Assembly (NCBI GenBank): GCA_048940645.1 | Contig: JBHLOI010000025.1 | Location: 1 to 49,553, forward strand | Direction: 5' to 3' | Source of the DNA: Promethearchaeota archaeon | GTDB taxonomy: Archaea; Asgardarchaeota; Lokiarchaeia; Sigyniarchaeales; SOKP01 | DNA: 49,553 bases | Part shown: in pieces, positions 3,336 through 24,751 of the stretch | Position numbering within the stretch: position 1 is the first letter of the stretch | How the letters are laid out: every line of letters starts with the position of its first letter | Made by a program: the position numbers and the translations under genes | The notes under the pieces: generated by a model | What the model was told of the DNA's origin: nothing | Databases searched by the model: none | The model's input: the letters and a program-made list of their open reading frames with translations, nothing else

Positions 3336-4340
3336 CTAAGAGTTAAAAAATCGTAAAGATATTCCTACCAAGGCTAATTCATCCTTTTTGTTAGTATGTC
3401 CACCTTTTCTTAATATTAAGGTATTTTCTTCCGAAAGGTTTAATAAATTGCTATTTTCTTCGAAATTCCTTAATTTTATTATTTTATCATTTCTGCAATG
3501 AATTATTAAAACTCTTTTAGATAAGATTTTCCATTCTTCTTTTGTTAAGGTTTGTTTAATATTTTTCATAACTATAAATGGAGATACTTTTTCATTCTCT
3601 TCATCAGTAGGGAAAAGTTTAACGCCTTTAAAAAAATACCTTAATAAAATGATGGGATTAAACCTTGGTAAGTTTTGTTTATAATCTGATATTGATGATA
3701 TTGCGATTAATTTTTCAATTTCAATATTAGGAAAACCTCCACATAAAATTGTTAATGCCCCTATACTGAAGCCTACTGAACATATTTTCTTTTTTTTTAA
3801 ATCATCTCTTTCTTTAATCCATTTGATTACAGTTTTATAATCTTCAATACGTTTATAGAATTGGTTTCTTCTACCTACTTTTCTTGATTCGCCAGTTCCT
3901 CGAGCATCATATGCCAATATCGTAAATCCTTGCATTGCTAATGGTAAATAATAGAATTGGAGGGTTTCTTTTTTGTCAGAAAAACCATGGCATACAACGA
4001 TCACCGTATTTTTTGATCTAATATGATTCTCATTATTCGATGTAATTATCAATGCAGCTAATGCTCTGCTTTTTTTCTTTTTTCCATTTTCTACTTTTAT
4101 TTTTACCTTTTTTAGGTTTAAATCTTCTAAATGAAATTGAATCCATCTATCAAACCAGAGATTTCGAAAGCTAAAGTAAATTTCAAAAGGAGTATAAATT
4201 ATTAAAAAAGTTGTAGTTGATAAAATAAAACACGGCCAAAAGGGATTACCAAAAATATTTTGATTTACATTCCAAATGAGCGTACTAATGAGGATACCAA
4301 AATAAACTACTACAATTCTTTTTATATTCTTAGATACCAA
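3336..4340 (-). CDS. Membrane-anchored alpha/beta hydrolase
   Basis: Two N-terminal hydrophobic segments; HGF, YDARGTGES, GFSIG nucleophile elbow, ND and GGH. Confidence 0.8.
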   Translation of the reverse strand: MVSKNIKRIVVVYFGILISTLIWNVNQNIFGNPFWPCFILSTTTFLIIYTPFEIYFSFRNLWFDRWIQFHLEDLNLKKVKIKVENGKKKKSRALAALIITSNNENHIRSKNTVIVVCHGFSDKKETLQFYYLPLAMQGFTILAYDARGTGESRKVGRRNQFYKRIEDYKTVIKWIKERDDLKKKKICSVGFSIGALTILCGGFPNIEIEKLIAISSISDYKQNLPRFNPIILLRYFFKGVKLFPTDEENEKVSPFIVMKNIKQTLTKEEWKILSKRVLIIHCRNDKIIKLRNFEENSNLLNLSEENTLILRKGGHTNKKDELALVGISLRFFNS

Positions 4341-4432
4341 AAACTATTCCCCAATTATTATATAACTAATCTAGATAAGAAAAAAAATAAAGATAAAAAA
4401 TGAAAGATTTCTGAAAACAAATTCATAGTAAT

Positions 4433-4762
4433 TTATTTTTTTGCTTTATCAGGAGGACATCCAAAATCATCACGTGTTTTACATTCACTTTTACTTGAAC
4501 TTCCTGGGCATGGTTCGCATTTTATTCTTCTTAACATTGCTTCTACTTCACTTACCTCATATCCAAACTCCTCGTCTTCAGATTCATCAGCTAGCATATC
4601 ATCCTTAATTTGACTCAAATCATAATCTAAATCTTCCTCTAAATTATCTTTTTCGTCGTATAAATCAATGATTTCATCCCCATCTTCATCTGTTTTCCCC
4701 TCAGGGACTTCATCAATTTCAGGTTGTTCGACAACTTTCTTCTTTTTTGCCATTGATCTCAC
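4433..4762 (-). CDS. Acidic hypothetical protein with C-terminal 4-Cys cluster
   Basis: D/E-rich body followed by CEPC...C...C. Confidence 0.6.
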   Translation of the reverse strand: MRSMAKKKKVVEQPEIDEVPEGKTDEDGDEIIDLYDEKDNLEEDLDYDLSQIKDDMLADESEDEEFGYEVSEVEAMLRRIKCEPCPGSSSKSECKTRDDFGCPPDKAKK

Positions 4763-4879
4763 AACTGATTTTTTTAAAGTTTTGATTTTTAATGAAATTA
4801 CATATAAAAATTTGATACAATTGAATATAGATTTTTTTGTTTTTATTTTTCTATTAAGTATTAAATCTATATAGATTTT

Positions 4880-6883
4880 TTAACTCAAAAGTAATTTTTG
4901 AAATTGCCAAATCTGTTCTAAAATTTTTTTATTTGTGCTCAAATCATTATAAATATTAAGAATTAAATTAAAGATTGATTCAGCTTCTTGTTTTCGATAA
5001 ATAACATATTTTGGGAGATTATATCCCGGAACAAAATATTTTAATTGAATATTAGGTAGACAATTTACATAATCAATTATGTTTTCCAATTCTTTAGAAT
5101 CTGTTTCTTTTAGATATATGCCATTTACAAGAGAATTTGAAAATTTTTTATAAAAACGAATCATTTTCCCCAAAAATGAAATTTCAATCCCCCTAGGAGG
5201 ATCAAATTGATCTCTTTCTATAAAATCAGATTTAAATTGGAATAGAAATTGGAGTATCTTTCCTAAGCGAGAAATTAAAGTTGGAAATTTTTCAGGTAGG
5301 GGTAATCTTTTAATAAAGCTTCCGTTGATTCTTAAGTAACCACCTGCCATATGTAATGAGCTAAATAATGTTTTAAAGACTAGATTTATCAAATCTGAAT
5401 TCAAAATTAATAGTAAACTAAATAGGTTATCTGTGTTATAGGAAGGAATCTGAATAAAATATAGTCCCGTGATATTAGTAAATATGCCAGGATCATAAGT
5501 AAATGTGAGATCTTTTGCAATTTCTCTGAAAATTAGTTTCTCGATACTGACTTTCTTCCAAATATTCTCAAAATTTTTATGATAATTAAAATATGATACA
5601 TTCAATTTATGTTTGGCAATCCTAATTGGTTTTTCAAAATTTATATGGAAATTTCCTACATTTCCAGTTCCAATTAATAATAAATCTTTATCTGAAAGCT
5701 TTTTTTTGGACACATATTTGAAGTTTTGAGCCCATTTAATAAATCCATAAGGGCGATAAATTATATTAAGATCTGCTATCACTTCTGACATTGGTTTATA
5801 TTTTGTATATAACATTTTTACTAAATGTAAATTCTTGGAGATTGGAATTACTTTTGCAGGGAAGAGTTTGATAGTTTCTTGAGGAATTTCATTCACTAGA
5901 ATTGATTTGGATTTTTTTAACAGGTTTAAATCAACAGCTTTTTTTACCATTATTTTTGAGTTCTGGGGTACTTTTTTCTTCAAAGATATAATTATTGGAT
6001 AAGCAGCTATTCCATGAAATACTGGTAAAGAAGAAATATCTATAATTCCTTTAATTTCCACCTCATTTATGAGGAGTTCTCTGAGCTTTTCTCCATAATC
6101 CGCCGATAAAAATTTATTTATTGTTAAAAATGAGAGTATACCCTCATTTTCTTTTAATAATTCTAATGATTTTTCAATAAATAATATTGATAGGTCATAC
6201 AATCGATAAGCAGAATAAAATGTTTTTGTAAGTTTTTGTTTATAGACTTTGTCAAGGATTTTTTTATTTTCTATATATGGAGGATTACCGATAATAAAAT
6301 CAAAATTATTAATATTAAATTCTAAAAGAAAATCTTTAACAAATAGATTAAATTTAAGGTCAATCTTTTTTGAAATATGATTAACATTTTCAATTTTTAA
6401 GCTTGAATTATCTGACAAATCAGATAATAACCATTTAACTAGTCTTAATTTTGAGATTTTTATTGCTGAATAATCTATGTCAATTCCAAATAGGTTTTCT
6501 TCAATAATTCTTTTTTTAATATCATAATCAGGTAAGTGTAAACCTAGGTTTTTATAAATTTGAAACAAAATTTTTGCCATTGAGATTAAAAATCTTCCAG
6601 AACCACAGGCAGGGTCTAAAATTTTTAAATTTAGGACAATTTTAAACCATTTTTTTTCAAATCTATAATTTTTAGAAAAAATCTCATTATTCTCATTAAA
6701 ATCAAAATTATTTTTAAAATATAATTTAAAACTTTCTGTAACCATAAAATCTGCTATATTTTGCGGTGTATAAATAATACCTAGATCTTTTTTTATTTTC
6801 TTTTGTTCTTTTTTATTACTTTCAAATTCAATAATATGTTCTTCAAGCGAAACTAAGATCTTTTTTAATTCTTGTGTTACCAT
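4880..6883 (-). CDS. N6-adenine DNA methyltransferase (TaqI/Eco57I-like, gamma class) with C-terminal target-recognition region
   Basis: YTP, LDPACGSG, GIDID, IGNPPY motifs. Confidence 0.85.
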   Translation of the reverse strand: MVTQELKKILVSLEEHIIEFESNKKEQKKIKKDLGIIYTPQNIADFMVTESFKLYFKNNFDFNENNEIFSKNYRFEKKWFKIVLNLKILDPACGSGRFLISMAKILFQIYKNLGLHLPDYDIKKRIIEENLFGIDIDYSAIKISKLRLVKWLLSDLSDNSSLKIENVNHISKKIDLKFNLFVKDFLLEFNINNFDFIIGNPPYIENKKILDKVYKQKLTKTFYSAYRLYDLSILFIEKSLELLKENEGILSFLTINKFLSADYGEKLRELLINEVEIKGIIDISSLPVFHGIAAYPIIISLKKKVPQNSKIMVKKAVDLNLLKKSKSILVNEIPQETIKLFPAKVIPISKNLHLVKMLYTKYKPMSEVIADLNIIYRPYGFIKWAQNFKYVSKKKLSDKDLLLIGTGNVGNFHINFEKPIRIAKHKLNVSYFNYHKNFENIWKKVSIEKLIFREIAKDLTFTYDPGIFTNITGLYFIQIPSYNTDNLFSLLLILNSDLINLVFKTLFSSLHMAGGYLRINGSFIKRLPLPEKFPTLISRLGKILQFLFQFKSDFIERDQFDPPRGIEISFLGKMIRFYKKFSNSLVNGIYLKETDSKELENIIDYVNCLPNIQLKYFVPGYNLPKYVIYRKQEAESIFNLILNIYNDLSTNKKILEQIWQFQKLLLS

Positions 6884-7044
6884 ATTTATTTAGGTTATCT
6901 ATTTAGTATTTCTAATACTTTTAGCAGATATTTTAAATTACTTATTCTTCTAGTTTATATTTATAACACTTTTATTTTAGAATAAAAAGATAGAACATTT
7001 ATATAAGAAAAATATGCTAGTATTATTTTTTCAAGCAAAGAATA

Positions 7045-7947
7045 ATGATTGAGAAATCCTATCTAAAAGATTTAATAAAAAAGCCAAAATTAATATCAGA
7101 ATTGAAATTTGAAGAACTTTCAAATATTTTTCAAGAAGTAAAGGCGCATTTTAAAGAGGAAAATTTACTATTAGAATTTAGGCTGGATGGAAAGGAGGAA
7201 GAGGCTTATATTATTGGAGACATTCATGGAAATTTACAAAGTATATTGAAAATAATAGAAATCATAGAAAAAAAAAATCCTAAATTAGTAATTTTTTTAG
7301 GTGATATAGTGGATAGAGGTTCATACCAACTTGAATGTTTAATATTAGTATTTGCACTAAAAATAATTGAACCTACTAGATACTTTCTTTTAAAAGGCAA
7401 TCATGAAACGTTGGAAATGAACCAATATTATGGTTTTTTCCAGGATTTTATATCAAAGTTTAAAGATCAATCCAAATTTAATGAAATTTTATCTATTTAC
7501 GACGTTTTGCCTATTTGTGCTGTGATTAATGACAATATATTATGTTTGCATGGTGGAATTCCAGAAGATTTTGATATTTTAAAAAAATTAAAGAATAAAA
7601 AACATGAAGATTTTGATAAAACTACTATTAAATTAATTAATCCAGCCATATTTCAGATTCTATGGAATGACCCAAAAGAAGTTGAAACTTTAAATTTTTC
7701 AAATAGTTTTAGAGGTACAGGAATAAAGTTTTTTGGAAAAAAAGCTTTTGATGCTTTTATGGAAATAAATAATTTACAATTACTAATAAGAGCTCATGAA
7801 TGTTTTCCTGAAGGTTATAGATGGTTTTTCAATAAAAAGTTATTATCAATTTTTTCTTCTGCTAATTACAGGGGATATTTTTCACCTAATCCCGGTTCAT
7901 ATGCTATAATAAGAGATAATAATCTAATTCCAATGTTAATTCATTGA
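7045..7947 (+). CDS. PPP-family Ser/Thr protein phosphatase
   Basis: GDIHG, GDIVDRG, GNHE, HGG, LWNDP, RAHE, FSSANY. Confidence 0.93.
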   Translation: MIEKSYLKDLIKKPKLISELKFEELSNIFQEVKAHFKEENLLLEFRLDGKEEEAYIIGDIHGNLQSILKIIEIIEKKNPKLVIFLGDIVDRGSYQLECLILVFALKIIEPTRYFLLKGNHETLEMNQYYGFFQDFISKFKDQSKFNEILSIYDVLPICAVINDNILCLHGGIPEDFDILKKLKNKKHEDFDKTTIKLINPAIFQILWNDPKEVETLNFSNSFRGTGIKFFGKKAFDAFMEINNLQLLIRAHECFPEGYRWFFNKKLLSIFSSANYRGYFSPNPGSYAIIRDNNLIPMLIH

Positions 7948-8391
7948 TTAAAGAATTAATTCTGGAAATTTTTCTATAATCTCGGAATCCTTTTTTATTT
8001 CTTCCTTCCATCTATCCTTTTCATCCAAATTAACAGATAACTTGTATTTTGTAATTAATTGGTCTGTAGGTAAATATATATAGGCTTGAATTTTTTCATT
8101 ATTTTTGAGATGCACTTCAATAATTTCCCGTTTAAAATAATTTTCTGAAACGCCCTCATAAAAATCTAAATATCTCAATTCTTCTTTCGTGACATCAAAT
8201 TTCAATGCATAGAATGAGGATCTTTCTGATGGTAAAACACATGGATACCAAAATCCTTCAGGATAAATCCGAATATAACCTTCAATTAAGCAAACTTCAA
8301 CATTCCTTTTAGTTCTCCAAATTCCACGGGAAATGAATGTTCCGTATCCAATTACAGAAACAAGGTTATAGGAAGGGTTAAATTCTCTCAA
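7948..8391 (-). CDS. Gamma-glutamylcyclotransferase (GGCT/AIG2-like) family protein
   Basis: GYGT, LDFYEG, AYIY motifs. Confidence 0.75.
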   Translation of the reverse strand: MREFNPSYNLVSVIGYGTFISRGIWRTKRNVEVCLIEGYIRIYPEGFWYPCVLPSERSSFYALKFDVTKEELRYLDFYEGVSENYFKREIIEVHLKNNEKIQAYIYLPTDQLITKYKLSVNLDEKDRWKEEIKKDSEIIEKFPELIL

Positions 8392-8396
8392 CTTCT

Positions 8397-8663
8397 CTAC
8401 ATAATTTGAGATGCATCTGGCTTTATGAAGAGAAGATTATTACCTCGTATAAAAATCTCGTTATATTTAGCTACAGGAGTCCCCTCTAAGAGTTCCGTGG
8501 CATCATATAGAATTAGATTCATGTATGCATCAATTTCTTTTAATAACCCTCTATATTCAGTACCATCTTTTAATCTTAATAAAATTTGGCTATTCTGTGA
8601 TGCCATAAGAATGGATAGTGGATTTTTAGATTTAGAACTAGAATTATTATTTTTACTTGACAT
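8397..8663 (-). CDS. Sm/LSm RNA-binding protein
   Basis: Sm1 motif LKDGTEYRGLLKEIDAYMNLIL and Sm2 motif IFIRGNN. Confidence 0.95.
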   Translation of the reverse strand: MSSKNNNSSSKSKNPLSILMASQNSQILLRLKDGTEYRGLLKEIDAYMNLILYDATELLEGTPVAKYNEIFIRGNNLLFIKPDASQIM

Positions 8664-8791
8664 ATTTCTACCTTTGTTGAAATAATTACTATATTTATAG
8701 AAAAGATAATTTAAAGAAAAACTTTTTTGAATTAAAACCTTTTTATCGGGTATTAATCCCTTAAATAATTATTATACTTTGGTAATCATAA

Positions 8792-9391
8792 TTGCGAATT
8801 TTTAAAGGGAATTATAACAAGAAAAAGGAAATAATAAGGAAATATAACTCAACTGCAAATTTTTATGATAAAAGATATAGCAAAATCCAAGAAGAAAAAT
8901 ATAGGATAATACTCAGCAACTTTCTGTTAGAAAAAAATAAAATAATACTAGATGCTGGTTGTGGTTCTGGTCTTCTTTTAGAATTTATTGTAAAAAATAA
9001 GATTAACAAAATTAAATTTTTTAATTATATCGGTATTGAGATTTCTTTGAACATGCTAAAAAGGTTTGCCGATAAATGTAGAAATTTGAGTATTAATCTT
9101 AATATAAATTTAATTTTAAGTGATATTGAGCATTTACCTTTTAGAGAAAACAGAATTGATTCAATTTTTTCAATTACATCATTACAAAATCTACCTAATA
9201 TTTCTAAAGGTATAATAGAAATTTTAAGAGTGGGTAAACATATGGCTAATTTAGAAATTTCGATATTAAAAAAAAATCTAGATTTAGATTTATTAATTTC
9301 CTTGTTAAATTCAAAATTAATAGATATTAAAATTAAAAATATTCAATCTATTGAAGATGTAATAATTCAAGGAAAATTGATAAAGAATTGA
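8792..9391 (+). CDS. Class I SAM-dependent methyltransferase
   Basis: ILDAGCGSG, DIEHLPF motifs. Confidence 0.85.
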   Translation: MRIFKGNYNKKKEIIRKYNSTANFYDKRYSKIQEEKYRIILSNFLLEKNKIILDAGCGSGLLLEFIVKNKINKIKFFNYIGIEISLNMLKRFADKCRNLSINLNINLILSDIEHLPFRENRIDSIFSITSLQNLPNISKGIIEILRVGKHMANLEISILKKNLDLDLLISLLNSKLIDIKIKNIQSIEDVIIQGKLIKN

Positions 9392-9407
9392 GAGATTTGC
9401 ACTAATT

Positions 9408-10283
9408 TTAATAAAATTTAGCAACAATTTCATCAGGATTACTAATTACATTAAACTTTTTTCTAAAGTAATTACAAACATTTTCAATATCTCTTTCTAA
9501 TAGAGATTGAGCATTTGGATGTTCTTTCGGAACCCACTGCAGCCAATCTATTATAAGGATATTTCCTTTCTCGTCTAAAATAATATTAAATTCCCCCAAA
9601 TCACCATGAATCATACCTGCTTTTTTATATATTACTTTTATCTGTTTTATTATCGTGTTAAAAATTTTATCTGGATTTTTAATACTTTGGTAATATACTA
9701 GTTCTTTACCTCTTAAGTATGACATTACAATAGCATGCCTATTAAATGCAATTGGTTTAGGAGTATTTAATTTAAGTAAATAAATTTTATTTAATGCATG
9801 ATACTCCTTTTTTGCTGCCAACCTGTTTATGTATAACCATGAAAGGTGTGATCTCTTCCCTATAAAACTTCGATACTTCTTAATATTTTTAAAGCTTGTT
9901 CTTCCCATTCGGTAAATTTTAATTGCATATATATTTTCATTATCATCCCTACAACTATAAACATCTGACTCTTTTCCTTTTCCAATTAGAGGTCCTAATT
10001 CACTGATGATGTTTTTTTCAACTAAAGCATGTAAAGCTAATACGTCATATCCATAGGAATTTAATGTATAGGAGATTTCATATTCTGAGGAGTTCCTTAT
10101 AATCAAATCGTTTTTATGCACTTTTTTAAGTCGAAATAGCGTTTCTTCAATTGGATATCGAGCATAAAATCTTATATCACTAATTTTTACATACTCAGAT
10201 CTTTTCATTCCAAGTTCAATTGCCATTAATATCCTCAAATCTTCTTTTTCAAGATTGGGAAGAAGTTTGGCAGCTTCAGCCAT
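9408..10283 (-). CDS. rio2: RIO2 atypical Ser/Thr kinase
   Basis: N-terminal wHTH (GYDVLAL), GKGKESDVY, GRTSF, IHGDLGEFN, IDWLQ. Confidence 0.93.
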   Translation of the reverse strand: MAEAAKLLPNLEKEDLRILMAIELGMKRSEYVKISDIRFYARYPIEETLFRLKKVHKNDLIIRNSSEYEISYTLNSYGYDVLALHALVEKNIISELGPLIGKGKESDVYSCRDDNENIYAIKIYRMGRTSFKNIKKYRSFIGKRSHLSWLYINRLAAKKEYHALNKIYLLKLNTPKPIAFNRHAIVMSYLRGKELVYYQSIKNPDKIFNTIIKQIKVIYKKAGMIHGDLGEFNIILDEKGNILIIDWLQWVPKEHPNAQSLLERDIENVCNYFRKKFNVISNPDEIVAKFY

Positions 10284-10359: not shown

Positions 10360-11154
10360 TTAAAAAATATATTTTCTGTAAGTTCTTATGAAAGATATTA
10401 ATTTGAGCAAATTAGGTAATTCAAAAATGATAATTGCAGAAAATATAATTATATAAAACAGGGTAATATCTTGTATTTTAATTATATATAAAGTAGTAGT
10501 TGATCCCTCCTGAAATAGAAACAAATAAATTCCTTGTTGGAGATATAATAAGATTCCACTACAAATTATCAGACCTATTAAAGAAAATATAATAACTTGA
10601 GCTTCCATTTCATAAAATCCAATTATCATATTAAAGATAAACATTATTAGAGAAATTATTAATAGGACTTTTGGATAAAACAACCAACTTTGATATATTA
10701 CAGCAGAAACAATATAATTACCATTTGAAACAGGCCAAAATAAATAATTGAATAGTATTAAAAGAGAAAATATTGGAAAAGTAATTGATATTATTAAAAA
10801 CACTGAATAAAGTCTAATAGTTGTGAATTTCGCAAATTTATATTTACTAATTTCTTTTTGCTTTTTAGCTGCAATTAACATTTTATCAAGTCTTTCTTTA
10901 ACAAAATCCGGGATATATTTAGCTAATACATTAATTTGAAATTTTAGTTGCAGATCCTTTGAAATTAATTCACTTAGTAATTGATATCCCTTTTTATACC
11001 TCGCTTTAGTACTCTTAGGTCCTCTCCATAGATAAATGATTTTATTATCTTCATCAAGAAAGGCACATAAATCATGATAAAATAAATATTCATCCTCTTC
11101 AATCCAATTATTTTTAATTTCATTGAAAATAAAACTTCTCAGCATAAGGATCAA
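10360..11154 (-). CDS. Gelsolin-like domain fused to a four-transmembrane membrane domain
   Basis: DLCAFLDEDNKIIYLWRGPKS resembles the gelsolin-repeat core; four hydrophobic segments follow. Confidence 0.6.
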   Translation of the reverse strand: MILMLRSFIFNEIKNNWIEEDEYLFYHDLCAFLDEDNKIIYLWRGPKSTKARYKKGYQLLSELISKDLQLKFQINVLAKYIPDFVKERLDKMLIAAKKQKEISKYKFAKFTTIRLYSVFLIISITFPIFSLLILFNYLFWPVSNGNYIVSAVIYQSWLFYPKVLLIISLIMFIFNMIIGFYEMEAQVIIFSLIGLIICSGILLYLQQGIYLFLFQEGSTTTLYIIKIQDITLFYIIIFSAIIIFELPNLLKLISFIRTYRKYIF

Positions 11155-11258: not shown

Positions 11259-12158
11259 TTAAATTTCTGTTAATCTCTTTTCAATTTCATTCCATAAATC
11301 ATGGATATATCTTTTATGGTTTTCAATTTCTCCTTTTGAGATTTTTCTGAATCTTTTTTGGGAATTAAAATACTCTTCTATGGGTTTTCTTTTTGAAGCG
11401 TCTAGAAATCTTCTACTATCTTTAGAAAGGATAAATTTACCTTCAATTATTTCGTATAAAGGCCAAAATCCTGTTTGTACGGCTAATCTACCTATCTTAA
11501 TTGAGTCTTTTGGTTCGTATCCCCAACCTGGGGGGCAAGGAGCTAAAATATGCAAATATTTTGGACCAGCTATAGCTTTAGCTCTCTGAAATTTTTCATA
11601 TAGATCGAGCGGGTAAGATGATATAGCGGTAGCAACATATGGTATTCCGTGAGCTTCCAAAATTTTTGCCATATTTTTCTTATAACCCGTTTTTCCTTCG
11701 GGTGTTGTAGTACTAAATGCTCCTGGAGGAGTACTTCCGCTTCTTTGGACACCTGTGTTCATATAAGCCTCATTATCATAACAAGCAAAAATAAAATTTG
11801 TACCTCTTTCTACAGCTCCACTTAAACTCTGAATACCAATATCAACAGTTCCACCATCTCCAGCAAATGCCAATACATTGATATCTTCTGATAAACCTTT
11901 ATCATCTAAAGATGCAACTATACCTGATGCTGCAGCTCCTGTGGTAGCGAACGGGGTGTGATATACAGATACTTTAGTTGTACAAAAACCCTGCATCCCA
12001 TGTAATACAGTTAAGCATGAAGCAGGTACGGTTATTATCGTATTTGGGCCTAAAGCCTTAAGAGCGATCCTATATATTAAAGCCATTGAACACCCAGCGC
12101 ATGCTCTGGTTCCTGGATAAATAAATTCTTCTTCGGGAATGTCCATTACTTTTACCAT
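11259..12158 (-). CDS. porB: Pyruvate/2-oxoacid:ferredoxin oxidoreductase beta subunit
   Basis: ACAGC, GDGG...DNEAYMNTG (TPP-binding), PCPPGW. Confidence 0.93.
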   Translation of the reverse strand: MVKVMDIPEEEFIYPGTRACAGCSMALIYRIALKALGPNTIITVPASCLTVLHGMQGFCTTKVSVYHTPFATTGAAASGIVASLDDKGLSEDINVLAFAGDGGTVDIGIQSLSGAVERGTNFIFACYDNEAYMNTGVQRSGSTPPGAFSTTTPEGKTGYKKNMAKILEAHGIPYVATAISSYPLDLYEKFQRAKAIAGPKYLHILAPCPPGWGYEPKDSIKIGRLAVQTGFWPLYEIIEGKFILSKDSRRFLDASKRKPIEEYFNSQKRFRKISKGEIENHKRYIHDLWNEIEKRLTEI

Positions 12159-13459
12159 TATTTTTTTACCTCCTCAAAAAAAGTTGATTCATCATAATTA
12201 TTGAGTTCATTTAGTTTTAGCCCTAAAAATTCGGTTGTCTGAGATATCTCTCCAGTTTTAGCTTGGTTTATGGTTCTATTAACTCCATCAATAATGTGTT
12301 CATTTGTTACATCCCTTCCACCTAAACCAACTATAAATCCTTTAATGAAAGGTGGTTTCTTCAATCCATATAAAGCGGATTTTAATTCATAGCATAGTAC
12401 CCCTTCATAACCGTATCCAATATCTCTATCAAAAACTACAATTGTTTCCTTCTCCTTCAATAACTCTTTCAAATATTTCGCAGGATAAGGTCGAAAAAGT
12501 TTTAAACTAACCAAACCTACTTTTAAACCTTCTTGCCTTAATTTTTTTAATACAATTTTTGATTGAGATGCAACTGATCCCATAGCGAGGATAATTAGAT
12601 CAGCATCTTCTAGTTGTTCAGTCTTAAATAAACCATTTCCATAGGATCTACCAAATTTTTGTGCAAATTCATCGTGAACTTGTTGTATAATATCGATAGA
12701 ATTTTCAAGGGCTTTTTGTAAAGCATATCGATATTCATAATATCCAGGAGCAGTACCTTCTTTCCCTCTATTTCTAATGTGAGGAGTTGTAACAGGATCA
12801 ACTCCTTTTATTTGAGAAATATCTGATAGATTGATATGGTGTTTGAGTGGAGGGAGAAAAGCATCAATATCTTGTTGATTTTCTAAAGTAACAGGCATCA
12901 TTGTATGACTTAATATGTATCCATCATAGGCTACAATTGATGGTAAAAAAACTCGAGGATCTTCTGCAATTTTAAAAGCTTGAATATTTGTATCATAAAT
13001 TTCTTGATTACTTTCACACATAAACTGAATCCACCCCACATCCCTTATGGTTATAAAGTCTGAATGATCTGTCCAGACACTCCACGGCGCTCCAAGTGAT
13101 CTAGTGGCTAAATTTACGATTATTGGTAATCTATTACCTGCTGCCCAAGGAAGCATCTCGTACATTAGCTCAAGTCCGTGAGCAGAGGTTGCTGTAGCTA
13201 CCCTAGAACCTGTTGCAGAAGCTGCGCAACATACAGCTAATGCTGAATGTTCTGATTCAACTTTTACAAATTTAGCATCCAATTTTCCTTTAGATATGAA
13301 TTCAGCTATTTTTTCGACCACGGGGCTTTGCGGAGTAATTGGATAAGCTGAAATCACACCAACCTTCGCTTGTCTAATTGCATGAGCGGCAGCATGATTA
13401 CCGGTTAATATTTTTGTTTTTTGTCCGAATGTTTTAATTTTTGGCTCTATAATATTCAA
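12158..13459 (-). CDS. porA: Pyruvate/2-oxoacid:ferredoxin oxidoreductase alpha subunit
   Basis: AYPITPQ, VESEHSA, GLGGRD; start revised to TTG at 13459, overlapping the porD stop and preceded by GGAGGT. Confidence 0.92.
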   Translation of the reverse strand: MNIIEPKIKTFGQKTKILTGNHAAAHAIRQAKVGVISAYPITPQSPVVEKIAEFISKGKLDAKFVKVESEHSALAVCCAASATGSRVATATSAHGLELMYEMLPWAAGNRLPIIVNLATRSLGAPWSVWTDHSDFITIRDVGWIQFMCESNQEIYDTNIQAFKIAEDPRVFLPSIVAYDGYILSHTMMPVTLENQQDIDAFLPPLKHHINLSDISQIKGVDPVTTPHIRNRGKEGTAPGYYEYRYALQKALENSIDIIQQVHDEFAQKFGRSYGNGLFKTEQLEDADLIILAMGSVASQSKIVLKKLRQEGLKVGLVSLKLFRPYPAKYLKELLKEKETIVVFDRDIGYGYEGVLCYELKSALYGLKKPPFIKGFIVGLGGRDVTNEHIIDGVNRTINQAKTGEISQTTEFLGLKLNELNNYDESTFFEEVKK

Positions 13460-13764
13460 TCTGTTTTTACCTCCTCCATAGTTATTGCTTTCACAGGACA
13501 TTCCTCCATACATATACCACATCCTTTACAATATTCTAAATCTATTCTTGGCGGGATTGTTCTTGAAACTACAGCTTCTGGGCAAAAAAGCCAACAATTA
13601 AAGCAGCTAGCTTTTCCTGATTTAACTGGAATACATTTCTCCAAATCAATAACTGGCTTTTTAGAGCTCCACGTTCCTGTTTTTCCTGCCTCACCTTTTA
13701 CTGGTTTTTGTACAGAGCCGAGTATTTTTTGGTAATCCTTTTTAATATCAGTCATAGGTATCAC
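13456..13764 (-). CDS. porD: Pyruvate/2-oxoacid:ferredoxin oxidoreductase delta subunit (2x[4Fe-4S])
   Basis: KTGTW, CFNCWLFCPE, YCKGCGICMEECP. Confidence 0.92.
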   Translation of the reverse strand: MIPMTDIKKDYQKILGSVQKPVKGEAGKTGTWSSKKPVIDLEKCIPVKSGKASCFNCWLFCPEAVVSRTIPPRIDLEYCKGCGICMEECPVKAITMEEVKTD

Positions 13765-14032
13765 ACATAATATTGAATTGAATTTAATATAAAAATTAAT
13801 AAGTATTGAAATAAAATTCTTGCTATTAAATTCGATAAGATTTACGGGTTAAGTTAATTAAAAAAATAATCTTTTTTCATAAATTCATATAAAGTAGAAA
13901 CATAAACCCCCAAAATAGAATAAACTTAGATTATTAACGTTGATAAAGGATAAACATAAATAATTATAATTTAATAATCTTTTTAGAGAAGTTTCTAATA
14001 GAGAATAGTTACCATACACTTAGGTTGTTAAA

Positions 14033-16276
14033 ATGGATTATAATAAAGAGGAAATAAGAGAAAAATTTAAAGATCTTTTTGAACATTCCTTAGATTTAAT
14101 TTATGTCAATGATTTAAATGGAAATTTTCTGGATGCGAATGAAATAACATTATTTACCATTGGCTATGAAAGAGACGATATTCCTAATGTTTCTTTTATA
14201 AATTTATTAGATAAAGAAAATCTAATGAAAGCGTATAAAGTAACGAAGGAAATAAAAAAAACTGGTAAACAATCAAAAAGAAGTGAATATAAAATTAAAA
14301 CTAAGGATGGAAATTATGTATATATTGAAACTTATGGTATACCCCTAAAAAAAGATGGAAATGTCTATGCAGTTTTAGGAATTGGTAAAAATGTAACAGA
14401 TCGTAAAAAGGCAGAACAGAATTTAAAAAAATCTGGAGAAATGTTTAAAGCTATATATAAGGAGGGACCAATTCCTGCTTATACTTGGCAAAAATATGAT
14501 GATGATTTTGTATTAATAGATTTTAATAACGCTGCTACAAAAATAACAAAAGGAACAGTTAATGATTTCTTAGGATATAAAGCTTCTGAATTGTATAAAG
14601 ATCGGAAAGATATTTTAGAAGATTTAAAACTTTGTATGAATAAAAAATTCCAAATTACAAGAGAAATGAAATACAAATTTCAGTTTTCGGGTGAAGAAAA
14701 GGATCTTTTTGTAAATTATGGATATGTTAGTCCTGACTTGATTATAGTGCATACAGAAGATATAACTGAAAGAAAAAGAGCAGAAGAGAATTTAAAAGAA
14801 TCAGAAAAAAAATATCGTAATTTAATTGAAAATTTAGATGTAGGTTTTTATCAAGTTAAATTAGATGGAGAAATGTTAAACCATAATAGTGCACATAATG
14901 TTATTTTAGGATATAATCCTTCAGAGAGTTTAATAGGGAAAAATGTTTCAGAATTTTGGCAAAATCCTGAAGATCGTGGGAAATATTTAGAAGTTCTCGC
15001 TAAGGATGAAAAAGTAAGAGGTTATATTTGCCATGTTAAAACTAAAACAGGTAGAAAGATTACTCTAGAATTAAATTCGCACTTAATTAAAGATAAAGAT
15101 GGATGGCCTATTCAAATTGATGGAACTATTACTGATGTTACAGAAAAATTCAATTTAGAAAGAAAATTGAGAGAATCTGAAGAAAAGTTCAGAAGCCTTT
15201 ATGAAAATACCCCTTTTTCTATAGTATTATTAGATTCTAAAGGAGTTATTGTTGATATTAATCCAAGATCGGCAGAAGTTTTTGGATATAAAAAAGAAGA
15301 ATTAGTTGGGAAAAAATTTAAAGATGTTCCAGTTCTTCATCCAAATTATTTACCAAAAATAATTGATTTGTTCAAAAAATTCATCAAAGGAGAAGTTGTT
15401 CATCGCATTGACTTACAAGCTTACAGAAAGAATGGCAGTCTAATCTGGGTTAACTTACAGGCTGGATTGATTGATATAGGCGGGGAAACCTACGTTCAAG
15501 CAATTTTTAATGACATTACGCTACAAAAAGAAGCGGAGATTTTAATTAAAGAAGAAATTAAAAAATTAAAAGAATTAGATACAATTAGAAAAAATTTAAT
15601 CTCACGCGTTTCTCATGAATTGAAAACTCCTCTTGTTTCAATAAGCGGGGGGAGTGAACTTTTATTAACTCTATATAAAGATAAATTTGGAGCAGAACAA
15701 CTTGAAATAATTGAACTTATAGAAAAGGGAGGTAAACGATTAAGACATTTAGTTGACAATTTAATTGATATTTCTCGTGTTGATTATAATAAACTCCAAC
15801 TTACTAAAAAATCAACCAATTTAAGTAAAATTATAAAGGATTGTGTTAAAGAATTAGATTATTGGATAAAGGAAAGGAAGCTTAATTTGAGTATATCAGT
15901 TCCCGAAAATCTCGTGTTAATGTTAGATCAAATCAGAATTGAGCAAGTAATTATTAATTTATTATCAAACGCGATAAAAAATACACCTCCCGATGGGCAA
16001 ATAAGGCTAAATCTTAGTAAAACGGGAAATTGGGCAGAATTTAGAATAAATGATACAGGCATCGGTCTAACAAGGGAGGAGATGTATATGTTATTTACTA
16101 GATTTGGCAAAATCGAGCGATATGGTCCCGGTTATGAATATATAGATATTCAAGGTACTGGTTTGGGTTTATTCATTTCAAAAGAGATTATTGATTTACA
16201 TGAAGGTGAAATTAGAGCTGAATCAGCCGGCAGAAACAAAGGAAGTACATTTATTGTAAAACTACCCATCAATTAA
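14033..16276 (+). CDS. Cytoplasmic multi-PAS sensor histidine kinase
   Basis: About four PAS/PAC repeats (DITERK-type ends), SHELKTPL H-box, NLLSNAIK, DTGIG, GTGLGL. Confidence 0.93.
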   Translation: MDYNKEEIREKFKDLFEHSLDLIYVNDLNGNFLDANEITLFTIGYERDDIPNVSFINLLDKENLMKAYKVTKEIKKTGKQSKRSEYKIKTKDGNYVYIETYGIPLKKDGNVYAVLGIGKNVTDRKKAEQNLKKSGEMFKAIYKEGPIPAYTWQKYDDDFVLIDFNNAATKITKGTVNDFLGYKASELYKDRKDILEDLKLCMNKKFQITREMKYKFQFSGEEKDLFVNYGYVSPDLIIVHTEDITERKRAEENLKESEKKYRNLIENLDVGFYQVKLDGEMLNHNSAHNVILGYNPSESLIGKNVSEFWQNPEDRGKYLEVLAKDEKVRGYICHVKTKTGRKITLELNSHLIKDKDGWPIQIDGTITDVTEKFNLERKLRESEEKFRSLYENTPFSIVLLDSKGVIVDINPRSAEVFGYKKEELVGKKFKDVPVLHPNYLPKIIDLFKKFIKGEVVHRIDLQAYRKNGSLIWVNLQAGLIDIGGETYVQAIFNDITLQKEAEILIKEEIKKLKELDTIRKNLISRVSHELKTPLVSISGGSELLLTLYKDKFGAEQLEIIELIEKGGKRLRHLVDNLIDISRVDYNKLQLTKKSTNLSKIIKDCVKELDYWIKERKLNLSISVPENLVLMLDQIRIEQVIINLLSNAIKNTPPDGQIRLNLSKTGNWAEFRINDTGIGLTREEMYMLFTRFGKIERYGPGYEYIDIQGTGLGLFISKEIIDLHEGEIRAESAGRNKGSTFIVKLPIN

Positions 16277-16292
16277 GAAGAATTCATAAACT

Positions 16293-16892
16293 TTATAGTA
16301 TTTTAGCTAGTTTATATCCTTGCTCTATTAATTCAAAATTAAGTTTTCCAACTTTTTCGCCCATTTTGTTAAAGACTACCTCTTTTAGATTCTTTAATGT
16401 TAAATCTGGTAATCCTTTTGATAATAATCCTAAAATAGGAGTATTAATAACTGGGTTTCCGTCTATAGTCAAATGTTTTTCCAATGCTAAATTACTAATA
16501 TCAGCGACTATAATTTTTACCTCTTTACTAAAATTAAACTGATTTACAAAGAATTCTGGCTCTTTATCTGAATTAATAATAAAAGTGCCATTAGTTTTTA
16601 GAGAAGATACAACTTCATAATCTAAAACGGTTTCATCAAATACAATTAAAATATCCGGGTGTTCAATTTGGGCACGATCCCATATTTTTTCAGTTCTGGA
16701 TAGTTTGGCATAAGCTTGAACTGGAGCGCCTCTCCTTTCAGCACCAAATGAAGGGTACGCGTGGACATCTTTAAAATTTCCACTTAAATATGCTGCTTCT
16801 GCAAGAATTTCACATGCAGTAACTGCTCCTTGGCCACCTCTGCCTAGTATAATTAAACTTATAATTTCATCATTATTATCTGAAGCATTCAT
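16293..16892 (-). CDS. porG: Pyruvate/2-oxoacid:ferredoxin oxidoreductase gamma subunit
   Basis: GRGGQGAVT, PSFGAERRGAPV. Confidence 0.93.
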   Translation of the reverse strand: MNASDNNDEIISLIILGRGGQGAVTACEILAEAAYLSGNFKDVHAYPSFGAERRGAPVQAYAKLSRTEKIWDRAQIEHPDILIVFDETVLDYEVVSSLKTNGTFIINSDKEPEFFVNQFNFSKEVKIIVADISNLALEKHLTIDGNPVINTPILGLLSKGLPDLTLKNLKEVVFNKMGEKVGKLNFELIEQGYKLAKIL

Positions 16893-20966: not shown

Positions 20967-23885
20967 ATGATGAAGGATAAAGTCTCAATAGAGGAACTTA
21001 ATCTGAGAGATCTAACTCCAATGATGAAACACTGGTACAGTGTTAAGGAACAATACAAAAAAAAATATCCTGATCATATTTTAGCTTATAGAATGGGAGA
21101 TTTTTATGAATTTTTCTATGATGACGCCGTGAGAGTTTCTAATCTATTAGGCATTACTTTAACTAAGAGAAAGTTTGGAGATGATTCCTATCCTCTCGCG
21201 GGTATCCCTCATCATGCAGGTAATTATTTAAAAAACTTAGTAAATTTAGGACAAACTGTGGTTTTGGTTGATCAGTTAGAGGATCCGTCTACAGTGAAAG
21301 GAAGAATTGTAAAAAGAGGAGTTGTAAGAATACTTTCTCCAGGTACAATTATCGAGTCAGATATGTTAAAATCTAATGAAAATAATTATATTTGTTCGAT
21401 AATTAGACAAAGAACTGGTTTTGGGATTGCTTTTGCGGATCTATCCACTGGTGAATTTATGACAGCAGAATTTTCTATGAATGAAAAAGATCCTCTGGAA
21501 AAACTTTTAAGTATTTTTGCACAATACGATCCAGTTGAAGTTATTGTCCCTTCAGAGTTGAAAAAGGATGAAAGACTATTTTTGTTAATAACTGATTTAA
21601 ACGATGCTTTAATTAAACCATATGATGATTCTATTTTTAATCACGATGATGCCTATTCTTTAATAACTCGACATTTCAAAGTTTCAAATCTTAAAGGATT
21701 CGATTTGGAAGAAAAACCACTAGCTATTCAAGCAGCTGGTGGTTTATTAGCATTTTTAAAAGAAACCCAAAGAGATATACTACCGAATATTTTTAAAATA
21801 AATATAATCCAAGAAAAACAAATTTTACATCTAGATTATATTACTCAAAGAAATTTAGAATTAATTACATCATTATGGGAAAAAGGGAGAGATACAACAT
21901 TATATTCCATCTTTAGTCACACTTATACTCCAATGGGAGCTCGTTTATTAAAAAAGATAATCTTACAACCGCTTACAAATATTAATGAAATAAATCAGCG
22001 TCTGAATATTGTCCAGAAATTTAAAGATGATATTTTCCTAAGAACGGAGTTAAGGGAAGAATTAAGAATCATTGGAGATCTTGAGAGATATATCAATAAA
22101 ATTAATTATTCTAGATCTTCAAATGCAAGAGATTTAGTAAATATTAAAAATTCATTAGAAAAAATCCCTATAATCAAAACAATACTAGCAAAGTCGAAAA
22201 TTCCCGAAATATCTAGATTTCTTGAAAAAATTAATGATTTTAGAGAAATTAGGAGTTTGATTGAAGCGTCAATTAAAGACGAACCACCTATCACTATAAG
22301 AGAGGGAAATATTATAAATTACGGCTTTAATGAAAGAATAGATGATTTAAGAGACATCCTTAATAACGGAAAATCCTATATTCTTGAATACGAAAAAGAA
22401 CAAAAATTAAGATGGAGATTAAATTCTGGTTTTAAAGTGGGTCATAATAATATTCTAGGATATTATATTCAAATTACACTAAATACCCTAAAATCTATTC
22501 CAAAATTACCTGAAGAATATATAGAAAGGCAGACTCTTAAAAATGCGAAACGATTTACCACAGCAAAGTTAAAGCAACTTGAAGAAAAAATAATAAAAGC
22601 AGAAGAACAGATAAACGATTTAGAATATGAAATTTATTGTACGATACGAGAAAAAGTATTACAAGAAACAGTAAATATTTTAGAAACAGCAAAAAATATT
22701 GCATTCATAGATGTAATGGCATCTTTTGCTGAGATTGCTGAACAATATAATTATTGTCGCCCGGTGATTAACAATGAAGATAAGATAATTATAAAGGATG
22801 GAAGGCATGCTGTTGTGGAACAAATAAATTTGTCTGATAAATTTATACCTAATGATTGTTATTTGGACACCGAGAAAGACCAAATATTAGTAATAACTGG
22901 TCCAAATATGGCAGGTAAAAGTACTTTTCTGAGACAAGTTGCTTTAATTTGCATAATTGCTCAGATGGGATGTTTTGTTCCTGCAAAATCGGCGACAATA
23001 GGAATTATTGATCAAATTTTTACGCGAATAGGAGCCTCAGATGATTTAGCGAGAAGATTGAGTACCTTTATGATTGAAATGACAGAAACTGCGAAGATTT
23101 TGCATTATGCTACTCCCAGAAGCCTTATTATTATTGATGAACTTGGTAGAGGAACCAGTACCAGTGATGGTCAGAGCATTGCTATGGCTACTCTAGAAAA
23201 GCTCCATGAATTAAAGGCTAAAACTCTTTTTAGTACTCATTATCATCAATTAACAGAGATAAATCTACCACGAATTAAGAATTATCATCTTGATATTATA
23301 GAAAATGAGGATGGTAGTATTAATTTTGTAAGAAAGTTAAAATCAGGGAGTACTGATAAGTCTTATGGAATAAATGTGGCGAAATTAGCGGGAATACCTG
23401 ATGATGTAATTATAAGAGCTTTTGAAATTTTAGATCAAATAGAGGAAAAAGACCCATTTAGAGCGATGGTTAAGGAAAATGGCAATGGAGTACGTTCTGG
23501 AAAACATTATGATAAGCTTGCTGGCGAAAAGCTAAAAGAGTTAGAGAAATTAAACTTCGAACTCGAAACAAAACACCAGGAATTAGGTATCTGCGAAGAA
23601 GAAATTTCCAAAAAAGAAAAAGAATTAGGTAAAAAAACTTATGAAATTGAGAAATTAAAATCTGAAATTAGTAGTATTAAAAAAGAGTCTAAATCAAAAA
23701 AAGCGAAAAAATATGTACAAACTTCTTTATTTAAACCAATAAATATTAATAAAAACTTGCTTGATGAAGAAGTTATTAAAATAGTTAAATTACTAAAGGA
23801 TATTGACATCAATTCTTTAACTCCATTAGAAGCAATGAAAAAATTGATAGAAATTAAGGAAGGATTAAAAAATTTTAAAAATTAA
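20967..23885 (+). CDS. mutS: DNA mismatch repair protein MutS (MutS1)
   Basis: TPMM, GDFYEFF (FxE), TGPNMAGKST, STFM, IIDELGRGT, STHYH. Confidence 0.97.
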   Translation: MMKDKVSIEELNLRDLTPMMKHWYSVKEQYKKKYPDHILAYRMGDFYEFFYDDAVRVSNLLGITLTKRKFGDDSYPLAGIPHHAGNYLKNLVNLGQTVVLVDQLEDPSTVKGRIVKRGVVRILSPGTIIESDMLKSNENNYICSIIRQRTGFGIAFADLSTGEFMTAEFSMNEKDPLEKLLSIFAQYDPVEVIVPSELKKDERLFLLITDLNDALIKPYDDSIFNHDDAYSLITRHFKVSNLKGFDLEEKPLAIQAAGGLLAFLKETQRDILPNIFKINIIQEKQILHLDYITQRNLELITSLWEKGRDTTLYSIFSHTYTPMGARLLKKIILQPLTNINEINQRLNIVQKFKDDIFLRTELREELRIIGDLERYINKINYSRSSNARDLVNIKNSLEKIPIIKTILAKSKIPEISRFLEKINDFREIRSLIEASIKDEPPITIREGNIINYGFNERIDDLRDILNNGKSYILEYEKEQKLRWRLNSGFKVGHNNILGYYIQITLNTLKSIPKLPEEYIERQTLKNAKRFTTAKLKQLEEKIIKAEEQINDLEYEIYCTIREKVLQETVNILETAKNIAFIDVMASFAEIAEQYNYCRPVINNEDKIIIKDGRHAVVEQINLSDKFIPNDCYLDTEKDQILVITGPNMAGKSTFLRQVALICIIAQMGCFVPAKSATIGIIDQIFTRIGASDDLARRLSTFMIEMTETAKILHYATPRSLIIIDELGRGTSTSDGQSIAMATLEKLHELKAKTLFSTHYHQLTEINLPRIKNYHLDIIENEDGSINFVRKLKSGSTDKSYGINVAKLAGIPDDVIIRAFEILDQIEEKDPFRAMVKENGNGVRSGKHYDKLAGEKLKELEKLNFELETKHQELGICEEEISKKEKELGKKTYEIEKLKSEISSIKKESKSKKAKKYVQTSLFKPININKNLLDEEVIKIVKLLKDIDINSLTPLEAMKKLIEIKEGLKNFKN

Positions 23886-24631
23886 AGAAGAGAAGAAGAA
23901 TATTTATCTAAAAAGCAGATTACTCGAGGATGTCTTTTCAATATTGATGCTGGATTCTCAGGACTAATTTTAGCTTTGTCAGACAAGCAATTCCGAACGG
24001 CTTCTGCTTTTCTTTTATCAGGACAAGTACAAATAATATTTTTAGCTCTCATTATCTCATTAATTGACATTGTAATTGCTTTTTTTGGCACTCCCTCAAT
24101 AGATTTAAACCATCCTTCATTAAGTTGCTGTATTCGGCTTTTAACATCTAAATTTACAATAATATAAGGTTCTTTTGTTTTGAAATCCGCTGGAGGATCA
24201 TTAAAAGCAAGATGCCCATTTTCCCCTATACCCACTAAAGCTAAATCAATAGTTCTTCTAGAAATAAGATCACTAATTCGTTTGCACTCATAGATTGGCT
24301 TTGCGGCATCTCCTTGAATAAAAAAAACTTTCCCAGGTTTTACTTTATCTATTATTCGCTTTTTTAGATAGTATCTGAAGCTAGCGGGATGATTTTCTGA
24401 CAAGCCTATATATTCATCTAAATGAAACATTTCTGTCTTTTTCCAGTTAATTTCATTATGGTTGCATAGAGCATCCAATAATTCAAATTGAGAAGTTCCT
24501 GTTGCTGCAACAAAACAACTCTTTTTTTTTGATTTGATAACTTTTTGTAAAATCTCAGCAGCTTTTTGTGCTGCAGCTTCTCCCATTTCTAGCTTATTTT
24601 GGAATATTTTTATAAAAACCAAAAAAATCAA
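23882..24631 (-). CDS. nagB: Glucosamine-6-phosphate deaminase family protein
   Basis: ATGTS, FHLDEY, GIGENGHLAFNDP, PASIL. Confidence 0.88.
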   Translation of the reverse strand: MIFLVFIKIFQNKLEMGEAAAQKAAEILQKVIKSKKKSCFVAATGTSQFELLDALCNHNEINWKKTEMFHLDEYIGLSENHPASFRYYLKKRIIDKVKPGKVFFIQGDAAKPIYECKRISDLISRRTIDLALVGIGENGHLAFNDPPADFKTKEPYIIVNLDVKSRIQQLNEGWFKSIEGVPKKAITMSINEIMRAKNIICTCPDKRKAEAVRNCLSDKAKISPENPASILKRHPRVICFLDKYSSSLL

Positions 24632-24751
24632 CTCTAATTTAAAATTATTTAAATCTTAATAGAGTATTTTTTTAAATTTGTTGGTAATGTGAAATATATT
24701 AATCTATTTAAATTATAAATTTTTGAGTATAAAATAAAATTTTGAGACAAA

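Follow-up and report, generated by a model that had tools for sequence, protein, structure and literature searches.

We found that a single gelsolin repeat is joined to four membrane helices in a protein (gelsolin-4TM) encoded on the minus strand of the window, which denotes here the whole stretch of 49,553 nucleotides that was analysed. The architecture is real and has no prior description in the searchable literature. The gelsolin fold and the membrane topology are kept in the family, and the residues at the presumed actin contacts of the Asgard gelsolin ProGel are lost. This combination suggests that the protein is a membrane adaptor whose fold may dock other partners or anionic inositol lipids and not the canonical actin cleft, a reading for and against which we see roughly equal weight.

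A gelsolin fold joined to four membrane helices

The minus strand at 10360-11154 holds a single open reading frame in this region. A TTG at 11154 would add three residues, which the homologues lack; since relatives at 44-92% identity are 260-261 amino acids long and align from the ATG at 11145, this ATG is the probable start codon. Residues are counted from it, i.e. the numbering of the earlier note minus 3. Homologue searches returned 150 sequences at 90% clustering and 70 at 50% clustering, with identities down to 21%. Nearly all full-length homologues carry both the gelsolin and the membrane part, and most differences between the window gene and its close relatives fall on third codon positions; the open reading frame is thus a real gene.

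The gelsolin-like nature of the N-terminal part, as claimed in the earlier note, was borne out, and both sequence motifs quoted for it are present. Conserved positions are W14, E16, L21, H24, D25, D31, Y38, W40, G42, P79 and L90, and the core motif is nearly invariant among 96 family representatives (D25 in 94, G42 in 95, Trp or Tyr at position 40 in 93). The Pfam model PF00626 (Gelsolin) scores below its gathering cut-off of 21 bits, both on the window protein (E 0.019, 15.3 bits) and on the best-scoring member (20.7 bits), and matches 42 of 66 homologues at E values up to 0.5. A profile of the family retrieved ProGel (7C2F) as top match (E 0.001), followed by villin, gelsolin, CapG and adseverin. 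In the AlphaFold2 model (pLDDT 89), residues 1-90 follow the gelsolin order of strands and helices, with a long helix on one side of a mixed beta sheet and a short helix on the other. Foldseek matched this model to 7C2F (E 9.9e-6, probability 1.0), the best 50 rows being all gelsolin-family chains, and VIA aligned 85 of 88 residues with 7C2F (Z 10.2, rmsd 2.6 Å, about 20% identity). As far as a predicted model allows, a true gelsolin fold is therefore established for this domain.

The proposed arrangement of four transmembrane segments without a signal peptide was likewise supported: the segments exceed a KD19 value of 1.6 in 93-100% of the 96 representatives, and the N-terminus is hydrophilic. 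Lys and Arg are more frequent inside than outside in all 96 representatives, which by the positive-inside rule places both termini inside and the gelsolin domain in the cytoplasm, as the earlier note had proposed. Modelled alone (pLDDT 96, pTM 0.88), the membrane part is a plain helix bundle, and each of its two outer loops contains short strands. Its highest conservation within the clade of the window protein lies in outer loop 2. We found no named family for it in Pfam, NCBIfam, the ESM Atlas, Foldseek or VIA; Foldseek gave no match under E 1, and VIA returned generic up-down bundles only. In some members (P0121, P0130), the cytoplasmic tail is rich in Lys and Glu and extends over 50-120 residues. 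All features are listed in Table 1.

Table 1. Positions in the window of the gelsolin-4TM gene, its predicted domains and its neighbours
Feature	Position	Strand	Remark
Gelsolin-4TM protein gene, 261 aa	10360..11145	-	ATG at 11145
Cytoplasmic gelsolin-fold domain, residues 1-90	10876..11145	-	Profile, AlphaFold2 model, Foldseek, VIA
Basic cluster K-x4-R-x-K-K, residues 44-52	10990..11016	-	Resembles gelsolin phosphoinositide-binding signature; putative function
Long helix, residues 47-63	10957..11007	-	K47, K51, K52, Q55 at ProGel hydrophobic/conserved actin-facing positions
Basic helical linker and juxtamembrane segment, residues 91-111 (R/K106, T109, R111 conserved)	10813..10875	-	
TM1, residues 112-133	10747..10812	-	
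Outer loop 1, residues 134-159 (W137, short beta hairpin, helix into TM2)	10669..10746	-	
TM2, residues 160-178	10612..10668	-	
TM3, residues 184-203 (G197, Y201 conserved), after 5-residue acidic inner loop	10537..10596	-	
Outer loop 2, residues 204-226 (G205, L208, F209, F211, Y220, I222 conserved)	10468..10536	-	
TM4, residues 227-247	10405..10467	-	
Short basic cytoplasmic C-terminus, residues 248-261; longer tail in other clades	10363..10404	-	
Rio2 kinase, downstream neighbour	9408..10283	-	Context kept in window genome's family only
2-oxoacid:ferredoxin oxidoreductase beta subunit, upstream neighbour	11259..12158	-	Context kept in window genome's family only

Loss of the presumed actin-contact motif in the long helix

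ProGel occupies the gelsolin/cofilin site on actin, with its main helix shifted by one turn compared to G1 (PMC7444086). Counting helix positions from the conserved Trp (W+n), we compared the 96 family representatives with 33 soluble single-domain Asgard gelsolins, a set that was retrieved with the host ProGel and is biased to its motif, yet spans the phylum. The one-turn shift presumably puts the W+11/W+12 pair where G1 has I103/F104, and on this basis W+7, W+11 and W+12 are probably the cleft contacts of ProGel, as deduced from the alignment and not from coordinates.

These positions are hydrophobic in 94%, 97% and 91% of the soluble proteins, respectively (W+11/W+12 pair in 30/33), and are Leu, Leu and Met in the solved ProGel. 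In the gelsolin-4TM family the corresponding values are only 4%, 8% and 19%, with the pair in a single representative and all three positions in none; the window protein has K47, K51 and K52. The small-residue pattern of G1/D1 at W+11/W+12 was found in 1/96 and the G2/D2 helix pattern in 0/96, whereas 51 of the 96 helices resemble those of repeat 3 (G3). At W+9, where G1/2DGel-D1 has the calcium-site Glu, Lys or Arg is present in 53 of 57 members of the window clade, R49 replacing the type II calcium-site Glu in the window helix. One other clade has the type II pair of Asp25 and acidic W+9 in 12 of 18 members. The exposed helix face is charged, differs between clades in both its residues and its charge, and shows the lowest conservation anywhere in the domain (0.27 compared to 0.56 for the core strands); selection therefore keeps the fold and not that surface.

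Hence, of the cytoplasmic actin-binding module postulated earlier, the cytoplasmic gelsolin fold stands, and the contact patterns of ProGel, G1/D1 and G2/D2 (0, 1 and 0 of 96) do not; similarly, the long helix is the gelsolin helix by position and lacks the residues for actin contact. Three soluble gelsolins of the host (L131, L133, L136, on contigs C19, C88 and C103 of G000) also depart from the ProGel helix motif, so that its erosion is not confined to the membrane family.

Distribution and origin

Within one Lokiarchaeia order, about 130 of 154 genomes carry the fusion; the other 246 Asgard genomes do not. Mostly as a single copy per genome, the membrane-domain profile found the gene in 111 of 134 genomes of the window's family and in 1/1 and 13/14 genomes of two sister families, and it had no match in the 246 genomes outside the order; the paralogue profile described below added 3 of 4 genomes of a fourth family. 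Some genera are without the gene, including near-complete genomes (e.g. genus g6, 0/4). The gelsolin-4TM tree broadly tracks taxonomy, which suggests a single origin of the fusion in the ancestor of the order. Fusion proteins of greater length were looked for and not found, which is a weak negative.

Several apparent exceptions were rejected. The only strong match beyond the order, in G058, a genome of another class (E 1e-16; L187:646-1935, minus strand), is a fragment in a chimeric open reading frame and probably reflects contamination or misassembly. The weak matches from the remaining Asgard groups represent soluble gelsolins, as none of them is recovered with the membrane-domain profile. 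The NCBI labels Odin-, Thor- and Hodarchaeota on some matches were also dismissed, these sequences nesting in this clade with its gene order.

The cultured species have orthologues, NEF87_002464 (UYP46179.1) in Ca. L. ossiferum and DSAG12_00505 (QEE14692.1) in P. syntrophicum, both named 'hypothetical'. Published work reports eight or nine gelsolin-like proteins in L. ossiferum, and the domain may already be one of them. The asCOG entry cog.006527 'Gelsolin domain' (PMC9834061 supplement) may correspond to the gelsolin-4TM family; its position beside TFIIB in the list carries no weight, because the list is not in gene order.

Gene context and a paralogue clade at an inositol-lipid locus

The context of the gelsolin-4TM gene is stable and not cytoskeletal. 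Here the gene lies between an oxidoreductase operon and Rio2, and in the cultured species TFIIB and a methylase adjoin the orthologue. Promoter scans gave results at chance level only.

We found a paralogue clade in 33 of 161 genomes. Of its 35 loci, 34 lie near an archaetidylinositol-phosphate-synthase-like gene, with the paralogue 12-37 bp upstream of it and co-directional in 25. This clade keeps half of the ProGel motif, with a basic residue at W+8 in 28 of 30 members. The window genome has no paralogue at the synthase locus. At this locus, P. syntrophicum carries a 233-aa membrane form of the paralogue (L218:3863-4561), and the Ca. L. ossiferum paralogue is shortened to a gelsolin domain of 92 aa, which leaves no space for a membrane domain (L219:4391-4666, minus strand). 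In family f4, a ubiquitin-conjugating E2-like gene and a soluble gelsolin-domain protein of 422-799 aa adjoin the gene (L105:4811-8126, L106:246-4829).

Gelsolins are regulated by phosphoinositides. The basic cluster of the window protein resembles the gelsolin phosphoinositide-binding signature as quoted in PMC2148220; a K-x4-K/R-x-K-K run is present at this position in 24 of 57 members of the window clade (f1) and in 0 of 39 others, counts in which kinship makes the sequences non-independent. The net charge of the helix is +3.8 in the window clade and +4.4 in the paralogue clade, and near-neutral in the clades of the cultured orthologues.

Expression and Lokiactin co-immunoprecipitation

In the tables of Radler et al., GNAMCCOK_02486 (54.82 kDa) corresponds to the peptidase three genes off, and the identical locus-tag offset follows from the three tRNAs that separate the gene from the mapped profilin/2DGel2 pair. 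On the basis of this agreement, we map the L. ossiferum orthologue to GNAMCCOK_02483. It was detected in 16 of 16 published proteomes, with a mean log2 value of 15.9 compared to 21.7 for Lokiactin. In the available part of the Lokiactin co-IP sheet it is absent among proteins with ratios above -1.06 (PMC13716822); this absence counts little, because the authors themselves warn that membrane proteins are under-represented in that experiment. Lokiarchaeal cells crawl and shape protrusions with Lokiactin (PMC13716822), and the host of the window encodes Lokiactin, which has an acidic N-terminus, as well as about ten other gelsolin-domain proteins.

Comparison with known systems

The closest relative by structure is Thorarchaeota ProGel (7C2F; Akil et al. 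2020, PMC7444086), which likewise is a minimal single gelsolin fold with the D...WxG core and, as in the window clade, is missing the type II calcium Glu. Unlike gelsolin-4TM, which has Lys-Lys and a four-helix membrane domain, ProGel is soluble and uses a hydrophobic pair for actin. The same two departures, in solubility and in the hydrophobic triad, separate the family from 1DGelX and other one-domain gelsolins with C-terminal extensions (PMC7444086; Radler et al., 10.1101/2025.11.30.690169, PMC13716822). These also combine an N-terminal gelsolin domain with an unrelated C-terminal domain, but their extensions are soluble (KD19 maxima 0.5-1.6), most of them retain the helix motif, and five co-precipitate with Lokiactin. 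With Asgard 2DGel and the eukaryotic gelsolin/villin repeats (PMC9433394), the family shares the fold, the repeat-3-like helix and, in the one clade mentioned above, the calcium-site pair. In contrast to these, it is a single repeat and integral to the membrane and lacks the LKxV inter-domain motif as well as any G1/D1 or G2/D2 pattern; the window protein has neither the small W+11/W+12 residues nor the W+9 Glu of the G1/2DGel-D1 capping domains. The gelsolin-like domain of Sec23/Sec24 provides a functional precedent for such a fold beneath a membrane, Sec23a having a gelsolin fold without demonstrated actin binding (PMC7444086). Sec23/Sec24 is nevertheless absent from the best 50 Foldseek rows, and gelsolin-4TM is anchored by its own helices and has no other COPII domains.

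The characterised Asgard gelsolins are soluble. No paper on the gelsolin-4TM architecture or its accessions was found in the searchable literature, nor any description of a membrane-integral gelsolin, in line with the earlier note, whose author was aware of no characterisation of it. The literature examined names no integral membrane partner of Lokiactin filaments. To our knowledge, the joining of a gelsolin repeat to membrane helices has no precedent in other organisms.

Proposed function and alternatives

In the adaptor reading, a single-domain Asgard gelsolin would have been fused once, in the ancestor of the order, to a plain four-helix bundle, which holds the fold as a docking module directly beneath the membrane. 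Such a protein would probably not cap, sever or sequester actin in the way of ProGel or G1. The strongly basic helix and linker of the window and paralogue clades may attach to something acidic, with the head groups of inositol phospholipids or an acidic protein as the most plausible candidates. The conserved outer loop probably contacts either a partner on the outside or a second protein of the membrane; each of these partners is putative. Lokiactin, if involved at all, would be reached indirectly or through weak electrostatic attraction. We favour this reading because the fold and topology are kept and the actin-contact motif is lost, because the orthologue is not among the enriched proteins of the available Lokiactin co-IP sheet in spite of its presence in every proteome, and because of the basic helix and the proximity of paralogue and synthase; Sec23a lends support by analogy. 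Against it speaks that parts of the family lack the basic helix and the lipid-type signature. Moreover, the synthase linkage is that of the paralogue, within a housekeeping gene cluster and among related, non-independent genomes.

A more direct link to the cytoskeleton would arise if the basic helix or another face of the domain bound the side of Lokiactin filaments weakly, with its density in the membrane giving avidity. The C-terminal helix-linker-LRD tail of the Promethearchaeaceae proteins may provide a further, WH2-like site. This tethering is possible but rather doubtful. It draws on the fact that the structurally studied Asgard gelsolin domains all sit in actin regulators (PMC7444086, PMC9433394), and on ProGel, which is weak (Kd about 337 µM) yet bundles filaments. 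The G3-type helices, the partly retained ProGel motif of the paralogue clade and the acidic N-terminus of Lokiactin point in the same direction, G3 being known to touch actin. Ten representatives have a tail of the pattern hydrophobic-acid-x-hydrophobic-R-x7-L-R/Q-D, which we take to recall long-linker WH2 motifs. The helix face, however, varies between clades, and the tail has no Pfam WH2 match, ends in charge where WH2 has Thr/Val, and is missing from the window protein. The lack of enrichment in the available co-IP data weighs weakly against tethering. Also against it are the loss of the gene in genus g6 and its absence from other Asgard groups, which also have actin-filled protrusions. We are similarly hesitant about a fuller version, in which the family is a dedicated integral-membrane Lokiactin anchor with a non-canonical surface, a WH2-like tail in the cultured species and an outer loop reaching an outside partner. 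By comparison, the strict mechanism of the earlier note, with the long helix in the actin cleft like that of ProGel or G1 and filaments capped or anchored at the membrane, is very improbable: its nearest solved structure is indeed actin-bound ProGel, and the host has Lokiactin and its set of gelsolin-domain proteins, but Lys-Lys occupies the cleft positions, and the ProGel triad and the G1-like small residues are practically absent from the family.

The synthase locus raises the alternative that the ancestral gene served inositol ether-lipid synthesis, sensing or presenting the product of the archaetidylinositol-phosphate synthase at the inner membrane face. The paralogue adjoins the synthase in three families of genomes, in one of them operon-like, and the only copy found in family f4 sits there; the phosphoinositide regulation of gelsolins and the quoted signature would fit as well. 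We nonetheless consider this accessory role unlikely, given that the main clade, including the window gene, adjoins Rio2 and the oxidoreductase or TFIIB and the methylase, that the paralogue is often lost with the synthase kept, and that the orientation is divergent in family f3. Four helices and two outer loops with beta strands, together with a weak Claudin_2 match of one member (E 0.014), could further hint at a subunit of a connexin-, claudin- or TARP-like channel, junction or receptor that is gated by the gelsolin fold. Such a subunit is the hardest to believe: connexin and TARP rows reach TM-scores of 0.2-0.33 at E above 1, generic up-down bundles match best, and both conserved charged pore residues and Cys pairs are absent.

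The family is a concrete candidate for a membrane partner of Lokiactin, with named orthologues in cultured species and expression in L. ossiferum. If it were a true actin tether, it would fill a gap in Asgard cell biology. Conversely, a non-binder would imply that counts of gelsolin domains overstate actin regulation and that Asgard archaea reused the gelsolin fold under membranes, like eukaryotic Sec23/24. The restriction to one order means that the family gives no evidence about the eukaryotic ancestor and, together with the doubtful actin link, lessens its interest.

Additional observations

In the cultured orthologues, the C-terminal tail is cytoplasmic and conserved and consists of a helix, a 7-residue linker, L-R-D and an L-K-E-I-like end (L109:7517-8365 and L110:8427-9284, both minus strand). 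In the host genome, Lokiactin is split over contigs C50 and C10, and a second actin, 83% identical to it, is encoded on contig C57 of G000 (L122:1498-2631, minus strand). A copy like this second actin was seen in one congeneric genome (L150) and in none of four others searched.

The window also contains a conserved run at 3336-10283 with Rio2, a methyltransferase, Lsm, a PPP-type phosphatase, an Eco57I/N6 methylase, a small acidic protein and a hydrolase, of which the methylase and the hydrolase also adjoin the gelsolin-4TM gene of the distantly related cultured species. Nothing unusual attaches to MutS and MutL, which lie near each other, or to a FeoB transporter (20967-26647 and 38085-40223). 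A multi-PAS histidine kinase on the opposite strand (13456-16892) separates the gamma gene of the 2-oxoacid:ferredoxin oxidoreductase operon from the delta gene, and a kinase at this site recurs in about 60 related loci.
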